The notes below the pieces were generated by a model. It was given only the letters and a program-made list of their open reading frames with translations. It ran no database searches and was not told the origin of the DNA. DNA of 64,000 bases from Escherichia coli (GTDB taxonomy: Bacteria; Pseudomonadota; Gammaproteobacteria; Enterobacterales; Enterobacteriaceae): NCBI RefSeq assembly GCF_046105845.1, contig NZ_CP151004.1. The stretch is one strand, 5' to 3'. Below are positions 622 through 44,589 of this stretch, piece after piece. Every line of letters starts with the position of its first letter. Within the stretch, counting starts at the first letter, position 1. The translations under genes and the position numbers were made by a program.

Positions 622-3600
622 ATGAGTAAACTTTTGGATCGCTTTCGCTATTTCAAACAAAAGGGCGAAACCTTTGCCGATGGTCACGGACAGGTGATGC
701 ATAGCAACCGCGACTGGGAGGACAGCTATCGCCAGCGTTGGCAATTCGACAAAATCGTGCGTTCCACCCACGGTGTTAACTGTACAGGCTCCTGTAGCTG
801 GAAAATCTACGTTAAAAATGGTCTGGTGACCTGGGAAATCCAACAGACCGACTACCCGCGCACTCGCCCTGACCTGCCCAATCATGAACCTCGCGGCTGC
901 CCGCGTGGCGCAAGTTACTCCTGGTATCTTTACAGCGCTAACCGCCTGAAATACCCGCTCATTCGCAAACGACTGATTGAACTGTGGCGCGAAGCCCTCA
1001 AACAACACAGCGATCCGGTACTGGCGTGGGCATCGATTATGAACGATCCGCAAAAGTGCCTGAGCTACAAACAAGTGCGTGGGCGCGGCGGGTTTATCCG
1101 CTCCAACTGGCAGGAACTAAACCAGCTGATTGCCGCCGCTAACGTCTGGACCATCAAAACCTACGGCCCGGATCGCGTTGCCGGTTTCTCGCCGATCCCG
1201 GCGATGTCGATGGTTTCTTACGCCGCCGGAACACGTTATCTTTCACTATTAGGTGGCACCTGTTTAAGCTTCTACGACTGGTATTGCGACCTGCCGCCCG
1301 CCTCGCCGATGACCTGGGGCGAGCAAACCGACGTGCCAGAATCTGCCGACTGGTATAACTCCAGCTACATCATCGCCTGGGGGTCTAACGTACCGCAGAC
1401 ACGTACGCCGGACGCCCACTTCTTTACCGAAGTACGCTACAAAGGCACTAAAACCATCGCCATTACCCCTGACTACTCTGAAGTGGCCAAATTGTGCGAC
1501 CAGTGGCTGGCACCAAAACAAGGCACTGATAGCGCCTTGGCGATGGCAATGGGCCATGTGATTTTAAAAGAGTTTCATCTCGATAATCCCAGCGACTACT
1601 TTATCAACTACTGCCGCCGCTACAGCGACATGCCGATGCTGGTAATGCTGGAACCTCGCGACGATGGCAGCTACGTACCCGGGCGCATGATCCGCGCGTC
1701 TGACCTGGTAGATGGACTGGGCGAAAGCAACAATCCGCAGTGGAAAACCGTGGCGGTTAATACCGCAGGTGAACTGGTGGTGCCGAACGGTTCGATTGGT
1801 TTTCGCTGGGGAGAAAAAGGCAAATGGAATCTGGAATCTATTGCCGCCGGTACGGAAACCGAATTGTCATTAACCCTGCTTGGTCAACATGACGCCGTTG
1901 CAGGCGTGGCCTTCCCCTACTTTGGCGGCATTGAAAATCCGCATTTTCGTAGCGTAAAACATGATCCTGTCCTGGTGCGTCAATTACCCGTTAAAAACCT
2001 GACATTAGCCGATGGCAGCACCTGTCCGGTGGTTAGCGTTTATGATTTGGTACTGGCGAATTATGGCCTCGATCGCGGGCTGGAAGATGAAAACAGCGCG
2101 AAAGATTACGCTGAAATCAAACCGTACACCCCAGCCTGGGGTGAGCAAATTACCGGCGTGCCGCGCCAGTATATTGAAACCATCGCCCGTGAATTTGCCG
2201 ATACCGCCCATAAAACGCATGGGCGCTCGATGATTATCCTCGGTGCTGGCGTCAACCATTGGTATCACATGGACATGAACTACCGTGGGATGATCAACAT
2301 GCTGATCTTCTGCGGTTGTGTCGGGCAAAGCGGTGGCGGCTGGGCACACTATGTCGGTCAGGAAAAACTGCGCCCGCAAACCGGCTGGTTGCCACTGGCC
2401 TTTGCGCTCGACTGGAACCGACCACCGCGCCAGATGAACAGCACCTCGTTTTTCTACAATCATTCCAGCCAATGGCGCTATGAAAAAGTCTCTGCTCAGG
2501 AGTTACTTTCACCGATCGCCGATGCCAGTAAGTACAGCGGTCATCTGATTGATTTCAACGTTCGCGCCGAACGTATGGGCTGGCTACCTTCTGCGCCGCA
2601 GCTGGGGCGTAACCCGCTCGGGATTAAAGCTGAAGCCGACAAGGCCGGATTATCCCCCACAGAATTTACCGCCCAGGCGCTGAAATCGGGCGATTTACGC
2701 ATGGCCTGCGAACAACCAGATAGCGGCAGCAATCATCCGCGTAATTTGTTTGTCTGGCGTTCTAACCTGCTTGGCTCCTCCGGCAAAGGCCACGAGTATA
2801 TGCAGAAGTATCTGCTGGGGACCGAAAGCGGGATTCAGGGCGAGGAACTCGGTGCCAGCGACGGGATCAAACCGGAAGAAGTCGAGTGGCAAACTGCGGC
2901 GATTGAAGGCAAGCTCGACCTGCTGGTGACGCTCGACTTCCGTATGTCCAGTACCTGCCTGTTCTCCGATATCGTTCTGCCCACCGCCACCTGGTACGAA
3001 AAAGACGATATGAACACCTCGGATATGCATCCGTTTATTCATCCGCTTTCTGCGGCGGTCGATCCGGCGTGGGAATCACGCAGCGACTGGGAAATCTACA
3101 AAGGTATCGCCAAAGCCTTTTCGCAAGTGTGCGTGGGCCATCTTGGCAAAGAAACCGACGTGGTATTACAACCACTGCTGCATGACTCTCCGGCAGAACT
3201 CTCACAGCCGTGTGAAGTGCTCGACTGGCGCAAAGGCGAATGCGATCTGATTCCAGGTAAAACTGCGCCCAATATTGTGGCGGTGGAACGCGACTACCCT
3301 GCTACCTATGAACGCTTTACCTCGCTCGGGCCATTGATGGACAAACTTGGCAACGGCGGTAAAGGGATTTCGTGGAATACCCAGGATGAAATCGATTTCC
3401 TCGGCAAACTCAACTACACCAAGCGTGAAGGCCCGGCACAGGGGCGTCCGCTGATTGACACCGCCATTGACGCATCAGAAGTGATTCTGGCGCTGGCACC
3501 GGAAACCAACGGTCATGTTGCAGTCAAAGCGTGGCAGGCGCTGGGCGAGATAACCGGACGCGAACATACCCATCTGGCGCTGCACAAAGAGGACGAGAAG

Positions 3601-20375: not shown

Positions 20376-20821
20376 ATCAGTCGCTTACCCTTGCTTTTTT
20401 GATTGCCGCCGGAATTGGTCTGGTAGTCCAGAACACGTTGATGGTGCGCATCACCCAGACCTCCTCTACCATTCTCATCGCCATGTTGCTGAACTCTTTG
20501 GTAGGAATTGTGCTGTTCGTTTCTATTTTATGGTTTAAACAAGGCATGGCGGGGTTTGGCGAACTGGTGTCCAGCGTGCGCTGGTGGACACTTATACCTG
20601 GCTTGCTGGGATCGTTTTTTGTCTTCGCCAGTATCAGCGGATATCAGAATGTGGGAGCGGCGACAACTATTGCGGTACTGGTCGCCAGCCAGCTGATTGG
20701 CGGTCTGGTGCTGGATATCTTCCGCAGCCATGGCGTACCACTACGGGCGTTGATCGGCCCAATTTGTGGCGCAATTTTACTTGTGGTTGGTGCCTGGCTG
20801 GTGGCCAGGCGCACATTTTAA
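20372..20821 (+). CDS. ydcZ: inner-membrane protein, DUF606 family
   Basis: 149-aa hydrophobic ORF overlapping the mnaT stop by 4 nt. Confidence 0.8.
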   Translation: MNQSLTLAFLIAAGIGLVVQNTLMVRITQTSSTILIAMLLNSLVGIVLFVSILWFKQGMAGFGELVSSVRWWTLIPGLLGSFFVFASISGYQNVGAATTIAVLVASQLIGGLVLDIFRSHGVPLRALIGPICGAILLVVGAWLVARRTF

Positions 20822-34949: not shown

Positions 34950-35938
34950 TCTTTGTCCTCTGCTTTCATTAAAACGGCGCGCTCGGTTCTGACTAACAAT
35001 TTTCCCTGCATCAGAAGCGCAAAAGTACGGATGAGCAGTATTGCAATAATAAAATTGGTAAAGATAAACAGCGGCACCGCCAGCGTATGGAAAAATCCAT
35101 TATCGCTGCCACTCCCCAGATGCAAACCGGTGGTTGCCAGTGCAGATACGCCGAACGAGAAACTCCAGAATGAAGCATTAAATGGCTGGGAGAGATACCA
35201 TGGCATCAGACGTAGCATAAACAGCAGTTGCAGCAGTCCATAACCGAAAAGCATTTTCGCCAGCGTGTCACCCTCGCCGCCGTTGACGCTCAGCCAGGCA
35301 CTACAGGCCACCAGCGCAGGAGCGAGCTGAATGCCGAGTGATGTCCGCAGCGCCGTGGGTAATTCTCCCGAACTGCGCAGACGCTGCAAGATCACCGGTT
35401 CAAGGCTTAGCCATGAGAAAACGCCTGCGCCTAAAAACACCAGACCGGCGTCGGTGTAGCCCAACGCACCACAGGCCATTGCGCTGATAAAGTTGTTGGC
35501 AACTGTCGGCAGATACAGTCCAGGCGTGGTAGCTTCTTCAGGATGAGATCCGCGCCATAATCCCGCAGTTTGCCAGGCGGCATAAGCCAACTGTACAACG
35601 ACACCAAAACTGAACAGGCATACCGCCAGTGGGCGAAACCACGGAACAAAACCAATCGCCACCAGCATCGTCGTTGCCGGAAACAAACTCACAAAACTGC
35701 TCAGCACTGGATGGCGAACTTCCGCCAGCACGCTATGCGGAAAGCGTATGAGTCGGGTAATAAATGCGCTAGTCAATAATCCCCAGATGATCATCGCCAG
35801 AATCACCAGCCCATCCCCTAACCAGTGGCTGACCTGCCAAACCTGGCTGGCATAGCGCCAGGCAAATCCCATCCCTATCGTCCCCAACACAATACCAAAG
35901 TAGCCTGCCGGCAAATTGAGCACTTTATCGCTCTGCAT
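34946..35938 (-). CDS. tehA: tellurite resistance / C4-dicarboxylate transporter family membrane protein
   Basis: Track ORF 34946..36046; start at internal [15 protein letters not shown]... gives 330 aa; 10-TM protein. Confidence 0.9.
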
Positions 35939-36061
35939 CTTCTTACTCATTTTGTTTAATTTATAAAGTATATTTGAAATGCATTTTATGGAATTTTCTC
36001 GAGCATAGCCAGAGCCGCAGAATTTGCTACGGTTATAGTAAGTCACCTGTGGGAAAACGCT

Positions 36062-37042
36062 ATGCGCAAATATCGTCTAAGTGAAGAACAGCGAGCCTTT
36101 AGTTATCAGGAAGATGGCACTAAAAAAAGTGTGTTATTACGGCAAATTATCGCCATTAGCGATTTTAACGATGTGATAGCAGGAACCGCTGGCGGCTGGA
36201 TCGATCGCGAAACGGTGTTAGCACAGGAAGGAAATTGCTGGATTTACGACCAGAATGCTATTGCGTTCGGCGGAACGGTGATATCCGGGAATACGCGTAT
36301 CACCGGCACCAGCGTGCTGTGGGGAGAGGTTTACGCAACGGATAATGTCTGGATCGATAATAGTGAAATCAGCCAGGGTGCATATATAAGTGACAGTGTC
36401 ACCATTAGTGACTCATTAGTTTGCGGTCAATGTAGAATATTTGGTCACGCCTTAATTGATCAACATTCTATGATCGTCGCCGCACAAGGCTTAACGCCCG
36501 ACCATCAACTCCTGCTACAAATTTATGATCGCGCGAGGGTTAGCGCCTCGCGTATTGTCCACCAGGCACAAATTTATGGCGATGCCGTCGTCCGGTATGC
36601 TTTTATTGAACATCGCGCCGAAGTTTTTGATTTTGCCAGTATTGAAGGTAATGAAGAGAACAACGTCTGGCTATGCGATTGCGCTAAAGTTTACGGTCAC
36701 GCGCAGGTGAAAGCTGGCATAGAAGAAGATGCCATTCCGACGATTCATTACAGTTCACAGGTGGCGGAATATGCCATTGTGGAAGGTAATTGTGTGTTAA
36801 AACATCATGTCTTGATTGGCGGAAATGCCGTGGTATGTGGCGGACCGATTCTGCTCGACGAGCACGTTGTCATACAAGGTGAGAGCCGTATTACAGGTGC
36901 GGTGATAATTGAAAACCATGTGGAGTTAACCGACCACGCCGTCGTTGAAGCCTTTGATGGCGACACGGTTCATGTCCGTGGCCCAAAAGTCATTAACGGC
37001 GAGGAGCGCATTACGCGAACGCCGCTGGCAGGGTTATTGTGA
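36062..37042 (+). CDS. ydcK: uncharacterized left-handed beta-helix (hexapeptide-repeat-like) protein
   Basis: 326-aa ORF with many repeated I/V-x-G-x-x-x-I motifs; 3' end overlaps convergent rimL by about 9 nt. Confidence 0.8.
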
Positions 37043-37573
37043 ATCGATAATACGCGCGTATAAGTTCACATCATCATAGGCATCATTCAGGAACTCAGCC
37101 TGTTTCAGACAACCTTCAAGGATAAAACCATTGCGCAAAGCGACTTGGTTGCTTTGCGCATTGTCCACCCGACATTTGATCACGAAGCGTCTAAGTTCAC
37201 CAGACTGAGCGTAATGATGAATCAATGCCTTCAGCGCCTGAGAAATGATCCCCTGCCCCTGATGAGATTCGTCCAGCCAGTAGCCGATTTCAGCGGTTTT
37301 ATTCAGTGGTTCAATACGATTAAACGAGATAACGCCGATAAGTTCATCTTCTTTGAAAATCATGAACATTTTGGCATAGCCGCGTTGATGCAACATCACA
37401 TTACCCTGCACCGTTTTTCGCGTGTCCTCTTCACTCTGAACAAACTGCGGCCAGTTTAGCGACTGCTGTAACCAGGTTTTATTTTTACAGATTAACTGAT
37501 AAAGAGGTATGACATGACTTTCTGCAACAGCATGTAATTCAAGTGATTCACTTACTTTTATCGTTTCAGTCAT
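37034..37573 (-). CDS. rimL: ribosomal protein L7/L12 serine N-acetyltransferase (GNAT)
   Basis: Track ORF 37034..37588; start at [14 protein letters not shown]... gives 179 aa; GNAT motif ([10 protein letters not shown]). Confidence 0.85.
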
Positions 37574-37635
37574 CTTATCTCCAGTCAATCCATGCAGTTG
37601 TTAAAAAAGCCGCCTGGTTGGCGGCTTAGGAAAGT

Positions 37636-37860
37636 TTACACCTCTTTGACGCTCTCCTGCTGCAGGATTTTGAGCATCTCATCTTTTAACTGTAACTTTT
37701 GTTTTTTCATGCGGACCACTTCCGCATTGTACCCTCGACCGTCGGAACCTTCCTTTCTGGCAATTTCATGATCAAGTTTATTGTGTTTATCGAACAAGGA
37801 CATAAAGCGAGGATTTTCGTTTTTCAGACGGGATATTAAATCTCGGTATTCTGGAAACAT
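37636..37860 (-). CDS. ydcH: small DUF465-family protein
   Basis: About 74-aa ORF (MFPEYRDLISRLKNENPRF...), coiled-coil-like. Confidence 0.75.
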   Translation of the reverse strand: MFPEYRDLISRLKNENPRFMSLFDKHNKLDHEIARKEGSDGRGYNAEVVRMKKQKLQLKDEMLKILQQESVKEV

Positions 37861-37999
37861 ACGCACTCCCTGTTAGTGGCTGACAAGGTGTATCTGAAAT
37901 ACACACTATCAGATTACTCATTTAACTTAGGGAAAAATGCGAGCGGGATCGTGTTTAACCAGACGGCACCTCCCGAAGAAGGTGCCGAAGAAAAAACGA

Positions 38000-39655
38000 T
38001 TAACTCATCACGCGGTCGTCAACATACTGACGTTTATCCGGCGCTGGCGGGAAATACTGATACAGCCATGTTTCACTGATAGCGTCGCCCTGACAACGCA
38101 GATACATCCGCATATCGACCGGATCAGTGGAGTCCGAAGTCGGATACCAGTCAAACTGAATACGATAACCATCAATGGGTTCAATATAGAGAATTTCGAT
38201 TTGCTTCGCTTCCCCACTGGAAAGCGTAATCACCGGCTCAATGCCTTTTGGTGCGGCAGCTTTCAGATCACCACCAACGAAATCGACGGCAAAACGACGC
38301 GCCCATTTTTCGGGATAGTGTTCACCTGGCGCCCAACCTTCCGGGAAACCGCCCATGCCGGTACGCGTCGCCATAACGCGCGCTAATGGGCAATGAACAG
38401 GCGGTTGCCCACTCCAGTACAGACGATACTGGAATGCAAACTCATCACCCGCTTTTACAGCTTTTTCTGGCTGCCAGAAGCAGACAATGTTATCCAGCGT
38501 TTCGCCCGTTGTTGGGATTTCCATCAGGCCGATGGTGCCCTTACCCCACTTGTTACGCGGTTCCACCCACAGACTTGGGCGTTTGTTATACCAGCCCATA
38601 ATGTCCTGATAATGAGAGAAATCACGATCCAGTTGCAATAAACCAAACCCTTTCGGGTTGTTGTCGGTGTAAGCATTGAACTGCAATTTTTGCGGATTGT
38701 TCAGCGGACGGCAAATCCACTCGCCGTTGCCCCGCCACATGGACAGACGATCAGAGTCATGGATTTGCGGATGAATGGTGTCGCACATCCGACGTTCATT
38801 AGTACCGCAGCTGAACATGCTGGTCATCGGCGCAATGCCCAGCTGTTTAATGTCTTTGCGCGCATACAGGTGATTTTCCACATCCATAATCACCTGACTT
38901 TTCTCACAATGGATAGTGAACTTATAGGCACCAGTAATGCTGGCGCTATCGAGCAACGCATAAACGGTAAAGGTGGTTGCCCCCGGTTTTACCGTATCAA
39001 ACCAGAAGGCGGTAAAGTCGGGGAATTCTTCTTTACTGTCGGTGTAAGTGTCGATCGCCAGGCCGCGAGCCGATAGACCGTATTGATATGTATCATCAAC
39101 CGCGCGGAAATAACTCGCGCCGAGGAATGATACGACATCACGGCGCGCCAGTTCGGGGGCTTTAAACACGCGAAAACCGGCAAAACCGAGATCACTTTGC
39201 CCTTCTAATTGTTTGGTATCAACACCCGCATCGTTGTATTTGAACAACTCCGGGCGAAAGTGAATTTCACGCGCCAGATGTGTTGCGGGATCAACAGAAA
39301 ACATACGAACGCGGCGACGGAATCCCATTCCCATATGGAAGAACTGAGCGTCCAGTTGACGGTTCTCAACGTTATGCCAGAGCGATTTTTCGGCGTCGTA
39401 TTGAATACTGTTATAAGCCTGCGGCGTCATTGTCGCCAGAGTGTCAGGTAACGGACGCGGCGCACCACGCCACGCGGTTTGCGCTAAGTCGTGCGCCATT
39501 GACTGTAGAATGGAGAAGTCAAAACGCTGGGTTTGCCCGTCGGCAATATCAGAATCTGCCGCGAATGCCGCCTGAGAAAAAAGAGAAGCAATGCCGCTGG
39601 TACCGCACACGGCGGCCATAGCCATTGAACCTTTAATAAATCGTCTACGATCCAT
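38000..39655 (-). CDS. opgD: osmoregulated periplasmic glucans biosynthesis protein D
   Basis: 551-aa ORF with twin-arginine signal ([18 protein letters not shown]...AFA); MdoG/MdoD family. Confidence 0.9.

Positions 39656-44400: not shown

Positions 44401-44589
<189 letters not shown>

Follow-up and report, generated by a model that had tools for sequence, protein, structure and literature searches.

Convergent genes that share the bases of their stop codons, such as ydcK and rimL of Escherichia coli, raise the question of whether the shared end is a selected device by which the two genes restrain each other or only the place at which two reading frames came to terminate. We addressed it for one locus in a 64,000-nt stretch of an E. 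coli chromosome (contig NZ_CP151004.1 of assembly GCF_046105845.1), referred to below as the window. Most likely, ydcK and rimL form an ordinary, ancient tail-to-tail overlap, which is frozen by selection on the RimL stop, has its transcripts ended by Rho and causes little interference. Existing annotation and catalogues already include the overlap, which carries no dedicated element.

According to direct reading and the list of open reading frames, ydcK (+ strand, 36062-37042, 326 aa, stop TGA at 37040-37042) and rimL (− strand, 37034-37573, 179 aa from the annotated ATG, stop TAA on the complement of 37034-37036) have in common exactly the stretch 37034-37042, and the overlap of about 9 nt claimed in the first-pass annotation is correct to the base. 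The overlap, TTATTGTGA, is read as Leu-Leu-stop on the plus strand and as Ser-Gln-stop on the minus strand, ydcK ending in ...G L L TGA and rimL in ...D S Q TAA. In the register of ydcK, window positions 37028-37048 are GCA GGG TTA TTG TGA ATC GAT, the five triplets from GGG to ATC being 37031-37045. The frames stand in the 123:321 codon register, in which either stop codon lies opposite, and is complementary to, a sense codon of the other gene: the rimL stop pairs with the YdcK Leu codon TTA and the ydcK stop TGA with the RimL Ser codon TCA.

Both are genuine genes on opposite strands, as judged by Pfam, RefSeq and orthologues in 38 loci, and their stop regions share bases. The product of ydcK is a left-handed β-helix/β-solenoid protein of the YdcK family, with matches to the Pfam families B_solenoid_ydck and LbH and with its function unassigned; the coding region is further supported by the reading frame list and by orthologous loci in RefSeq. 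RimL is the ribosomal protein L7/L12-serine acetyltransferase, a GNAT protein matching Pfam Acetyltransf_3 with E=1e-22, in agreement with the reading frame list and the annotation. It acetylates ribosomal protein L12 and detoxifies microcin C-type compounds. The mechanical start of the rimL reading frame is a TTG at 37588, five codons 5′ of the annotated ATG (37573, the RefSeq choice), which has no bearing on the 3′ overlap. An identical 9-nt overlap is present in the PGAP/RefSeq annotation of K-12 EMG2 (ydcK 1663-2643 on the plus strand and rimL 2635-3174 on the minus strand of the extracted locus) and of strain A10. The same overlap also follows from the MG1655 v2 coordinates used by Huang et al. 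2020 (PMC7373196), namely, 1496962-1497501 for rimL and 1497493-1498473 for ydcK.

Within the species the junction is nearly universal. A 61-nt junction query was found once per genome in 5412 of 5426 complete E. coli genomes, and among the matches listed both genes are annotated beneath the match in every one. The 2-kb query covering 35900-37900 was likewise found in 5412 of the 5426, at 95-99% identity, with only 3 of the 5412 reaching at least 99%; five of the 2-kb matches lie on records labelled as plasmids. In E. coli LHM10-1 the match to the 2-kb query falls into two separate places and ydcK carries no gene name in the annotation, pointing to an insertion in the ydcK of this strain.

For a wider view we scanned one genome per species with YdcK, which gave 38 usable loci, and placed both stops in each of them by tblastn and in-frame extension; the matches included neither Salmonella nor Klebsiella. 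A convergent rimL lies immediately 3′ of ydcK in 37 of the 38 loci, and this adjacency is retained even where tehA or ydcH has been lost. The overlap is exactly 9 nt in 31 of the 38, with nine different 9-mers and in at least eight genera, and is therefore not a chance feature of one genome. The 9-nt group comprises Escherichia species and clades, E. albertii, many Citrobacter, Pluralibacter, Yokenella, Trabulsiella, Superficieibacter electus and other Enterobacteriaceae, and YdcK identity within it is as low as 54%. The exceptions are one Superficieibacter species with a gap of +3, three loci of Cedecea and Dryocola with a gap of 0, a Buttiauxella MAG with a gap of +22, one isolate with a 4-nt overlap and one MAG in which rimL has been replaced. 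In this last case, a Pluralibacter MAG (locus 3481-3491), a convergent ORF for an hrpA-like helicase occupies the place of rimL and ends 9 nt past the ydcK stop; it represents either a rearrangement or an assembly chimera.

Several assemblies in this survey look mislabelled or contaminated: the ydcK-rimL locus on a contig labelled 'Chryseobacterium sp. 18061' is enterobacterial and has exactly the junction sequence of 'Citrobacter sp. 18056', a 237-bp 'Alkalicoccobacillus porphyridii' contig has 97% protein-level identity to E. coli ydcK, and in a MAG labelled 'uncultured Raoultella' the junction matches Citrobacter braakii. As a separate observation, YdcK and RimL diverge much faster than their neighbours, with 84-89% identity within Escherichia clades vs 96-99% for TehA, OpgD and YdcH, and with 45-78% across genera vs 73-93% for the neighbours.

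Alignment of the C-termini points to how the overlap may have formed. YdcK ends at the same aligned residue everywhere, with RTPL[AL]G[LS][LF]* in the overlap group (RITRTPL[AL]G[LS][LF]* being conserved in 32 loci) and PFYGVF* in the outgroups. The conserved part of RimL extends to YARI[IV][DE], which is also where the protein ends in the outgroups Cedecea, Dryocola and Buttiauxella; their two stops are adjacent or separated by 22 nt. Members of the overlap group have a further 2-4 RimL residues that vary (SQ, SSE-type, PASK and others); the last two codons of this tail lie over the YdcK stop and the last YdcK sense codon, the RimL stop itself falling over YdcK codon −2. A shift of the stop codon would have let the RimL C-terminus run across the ydcK stop to the first in-frame antisense stop, which is at YdcK codon −2. 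From these alignments we infer that the overlap arose by extension of RimL into ydcK.

The same position shows what has held the geometry in place. YdcK codon −2 is TTA in 19 sequences, TCA in 11 and CTA in 2, that is, an antisense stop in all 32 overlap sequences; TTA, CTA and TCA are precisely the three codons that have a stop as complement. In the remainder of these ydcK genes, the three types account for only 21% of the Leu codons and 10% of the Ser codons. The residue at −2 toggles between Leu and Ser, and the antisense stop is retained. Loss of the RimL stop would usually add tens of residues to the protein (range 1-309). Because losing the stop usually lengthens RimL by tens of residues and codon −2 is always an antisense stop, ordinary purifying selection on the RimL stop suffices to freeze the 9-nt geometry, and regulatory selection is not needed. 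The overlap is also dispensable, since one Superficieibacter species has lost it.

Such an origin is in line with what is known about convergent overlaps in general. E. coli has 58 convergent CDS overlaps by the count of Lillo & Krakauer 2007, whose data are fitted by a model of stop-codon mutation; only 20% of the genes in these overlaps had a predicted intrinsic terminator. The ydcK-rimL pair has the same shared stop regions in the 123:321 register, which accounts for 33% of their convergent overlaps of at least 5 nt, its sequence is consistent with a stop-codon mutation followed by extension to the next antisense stop, and, like ~80% of such genes, it has no predicted intrinsic terminator. 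Nothing essential differs, except that the ydcK-rimL geometry is unusually well preserved across genera. The pair provides a clean textbook example of how a shifted stop codon creates a convergent overlap, which is then frozen as the stops become sense codons of the partner.

We then considered how transcription ends at the locus. A consensus scan of 35800-38200 detected no hairpin-plus-U-tract terminator 3′ of either stop; its two plus-strand matches, both inside ydcK, are at chance level (2 found vs 2.3 expected from shuffled sequences). A promoter scan of the region returned no sites, and no Rfam families matched at E<=1. Because there is no intergenic DNA and no intrinsic terminator, each RNA polymerase must enter the coding region of the partner, which bears out what the first-pass annotation had claimed for both transcripts. 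Its further statement, that the overlap leaves no room for independent terminators, presupposes that termination needs intergenic space and is not supported, because a termination signal can sit inside the partner, as a Rho region reported by Adams et al. does in ydcK.

This region is listed in Supplementary file 2 of Adams et al. 2021 (PMC7815308) on the plus strand of MG1655, with the peak at 1499587, the class 'antisense ydcK', a Rho score of 4.31 and p = 1.5e-8. Coverage at the peak was 82 upstream and 20 downstream without bicyclomycin, and 137 and 144, respectively, with it. Coordinates were calibrated by checking the 61-mers of the Adams et al. table on thrL and by placing the ydcH 3′ end at 1498877, whereby the last base of the ydcH stop, 1498875, equals window position 37636; the v2 coordinates of Huang et al. 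agree after addition of 1976, and K-12 and the window are colinear at the locus. The peak falls at about window position 36924, ~110 nt past the rimL stop and within the last ~40 codons of ydcK, the position being coarse (~±100 nt), with 800-nt windows used in the method. Because this bicyclomycin-sensitive Rho region lies inside ydcK, rimL-strand read-through is actively limited by a Rho signal embedded in ydcK. The 3′ untranslated extension of the rimL transcript accordingly spans approximately 36824-37033 (− strand; peak ±100 nt), a Rho zone antisense to the last ~70 codons of ydcK. The Term-seq data of the same study also contain a 'primary' 3′ end for ydcH, upstream of rimL and 2 nt past the TAA (MG1655 1498877, window 37624-37636), with no obvious terminator there.

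The composition of the RNA fits this picture in both directions. It is C-rich and G-poor, with C/G of 1.3-2.3 downstream of rimL and 1.1-1.5 downstream of ydcK, and a rut-like composition is present downstream of both stops, although this is a weak criterion, most RNA antisense to coding DNA being similar. Once the ribosome has left at the stop codon, such untranslated, C-rich, G-poor antisense RNA is a substrate for Rho. In the rimL direction, the published bicyclomycin data show that Rho terminates transcription ~110 nt into ydcK. The composition downstream of ydcK is compatible with Rho loading, and the ydcK-direction transcript would presumably be ended by Rho as well; its 3′ untranslated extension, which has no intrinsic terminator, would cover about 37043-37300 on the plus strand, antisense to the 3′ half of rimL. 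The Adams et al. 2021 tables list neither a Rho region of class 'antisense rimL' nor a curated Term-seq 3′ end of either gene, and the SMRT-Cappable-seq supplements make no mention of rimL, ydcK or ydcH. With its bicyclomycin-sensitive drop in coverage, on the rimL strand inside ydcK and in C-rich, G-poor RNA, the locus matches the suppression of antisense read-through by Rho described by Adams et al. 2021, but is documented in one direction only and with a position good to ~±100 nt. It illustrates how E. coli can end transcripts by Rho inside a neighbouring gene where intergenic space is lacking.

Entry of each polymerase into the opposite gene would give the two mRNAs short complementary 3′ ends and, with them, low levels of antisense RNA and dsRNA. 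Published data agree with such modest levels. In total RNA of the wild type, sense and antisense signals are 35.9 and 9.2 RPM for rimL and 66.1 and 5.0 RPM for ydcK, compared with 54.9 and 0.17 RPM for ydcH, and the dsRNA captured with p19 in six libraries amounts to 5-39 RPM for rimL and 5-221 RPM for ydcK, with 133-221 RPM for ydcK in four replicate libraries (Huang et al. 2020, PMC7373196). Sense RNA in the RNase III mutants rnc-14 and rnc-38 is 17.4 and 17.4 RPM for rimL and 25.5 and 9.1 RPM for ydcK (same source), so that neither gene rises in either mutant, these being single RPM values and not a designed test. The absent rise is the opposite of what strong RNase III-mediated repression predicts and constitutes weak evidence against it. 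Both rimL and ydcK are weakly expressed, and their antisense RNA and dsRNA are modest. Mutual interference between them is possible, unproven and probably small, given their weak transcription and the limit that Rho sets to read-through. Overlapping transcripts as such are nothing special: according to Conway et al. 2014, 276 of 370 convergent operons (~75%) have overlapping 3′ ends, with a mean overlap of 286 nt, which makes transcript overlap the rule in E. coli, with or without overlap of the coding regions.

The alternative that survives best, although we regard it as unlikely, is that the pair is a functional excludon, in which RimL and YdcK are expressed in a mutually exclusive way, owing to convergent transcription and/or cleavage of the 3′ duplex by RNase III, and selection keeps the tail-to-tail order on that account. 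ExcludonFinder (NAR 2025, PMC12288877) has rimL-ydcK as one of 165 convergent excludons that recur in at least 50% of 58 MG1655 transcriptomes, a call that counts against the ordinary-overlap reading; by the definition of the tool, however, any expressed pair with overlapping CDSs qualifies. The same paper reports higher synteny of excludon pairs, and at our locus both the adjacency in 37 of 38 loci, kept despite loss of tehA or ydcH, and the 9-nt geometry across at least eight genera could reflect more than inertia. Yet selection on the two stop codons fully accounts for the conserved geometry, and the genes persist in the one Superficieibacter species that lost the overlap as well as in the outgroups that do not have it. 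Duplex RNA does form, as indicated by the p19-captured ydcK dsRNA of 133-221 RPM and by the ratio of antisense to sense rimL RNA, 0.26 in the wild type, and this too speaks for an excludon; against it, Rho truncates read-through in the rimL direction, the rnc mutants show no increase in sense RNA and expression of both genes is weak. YdcK and RimL have no known functional link, and a literature search on the function of ydcK yielded nothing informative.

A further reading, in which the junction, kept at 9 nt in many enterobacterial genera, is a selected regulatory coupling, with rimL transcription tuning down YdcK through 3′ antisense RNA or the reverse, appears to us very improbable. If true, it would hint at a functional relationship between RimL and YdcK. 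Compared with convergent excludons as described by Conway et al. 2014 and by ExcludonFinder (2025), the locus has the same necessary 3′ transcript overlap and belongs to the published E. coli excludome, but reciprocal repression, their defining consequence, would be weak here, as argued by the rnc-mutant and Rho data. The pair could nevertheless serve as a simple test case for the regulatory effect of excludons called from RNA-seq coverage. Conway et al. 2014 cite dnaQ-rnh and ilvA-ilvY as classical E. coli examples of convergent overlap. Both show the same overlapping convergent transcription of neighbouring chromosomal genes, but those pairs have been studied experimentally, whereas ydcK-rimL is known from genome-wide data alone.

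It is also quite doubtful that the genes terminate independently, with the end of the ydcK transcript set by an embedded intrinsic terminator or a 3′-stabilising hairpin at 37132-37160. A 13-bp hairpin, GCGCAAAGCGAC-UUG-GUUGCUUUGCGC, can form there in the ydcK-direction RNA (+ strand), 90-118 nt past the ydcK stop, from a near-perfect inverted repeat inside rimL that encodes AQSNQVALR. Its local ΔG of about −25 kcal/mol makes it a strong structure, a G-U pair makes it fold better in the ydcK direction than in the rimL mRNA, and a location inside the partner would be in keeping with the 20% of convergent-overlap genes for which Lillo & Krakauer 2007 predicted an intrinsic terminator. But the hairpin, the sole strong one 3′ of either stop, has no U tract (the tail is AUUGUCC), was not called by the terminator scan and has no Term-seq 3′ end in the Adams et al. 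2021 tables. Folding of the whole region gives a z-score of only −1.6 in the ydcK direction, and the RNA downstream of rimL shows no unusual folding (z = −0.6). Moreover, a strong stem is confined to E. coli sensu stricto, with K-12 having a weakened form, and E. albertii, other Escherichia clades and Citrobacter have none. Lacking a U tract and conservation outside E. coli sensu stricto, the hairpin was rejected as an embedded terminator; it is probably an incidental by-product of the rimL coding sequence. Bidirectional intrinsic terminators can lie between convergent genes. The task is the same at ydcK-rimL, where two converging transcripts have to be ended in one place, but this locus, which has neither an intergenic hairpin nor flanking A/U tracts, uses none.

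Finally, it is scarcely credible that one ORF end is wrong and the genes do not truly overlap, an outcome that the first-pass annotation had foreseen in the form of shifted stops and that the general tendency of short overlaps to stem from mis-called ends could favour, but which we rejected because the stop codons are fixed by their frames, both frames have family matches, conservation of both C-termini reaches the stops in 32 sequences and the antisense-stop codon is under visible selection.

The ordinary tail-to-tail overlap that we favour is no rarity. Strain A10, the closest genome, has 12 convergent pairs within the 50 kb surrounding the locus; two of these overlap and a third has a gap of zero, the distances being 83, 392, 112, 35, 0, 401, 91, 34, −9, 37, −23 and 41 nt. 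In the window itself, ydcZ (+) and ydcY (−) abut at 20821/20822 with zero gap, and hokB (+) and yncP (−) overlap by 23 nt at 44567-44589; yncP-hokB likewise appears in the ExcludonFinder list (PMC12288877). The ydcK-rimL finding itself matters little and opens no new question. As to the surrounding DNA, the aligned window blocks contain nothing that corresponds to the A10 segment with PAAR, VgrG and an M35 peptidase (a T6SS cluster) or to the A10 gene for a CatB-related acetyltransferase between yncL and patD, and the part of the window at ~7300-29000 is not colinear with A10, the block offsets changing upstream of ~29017.
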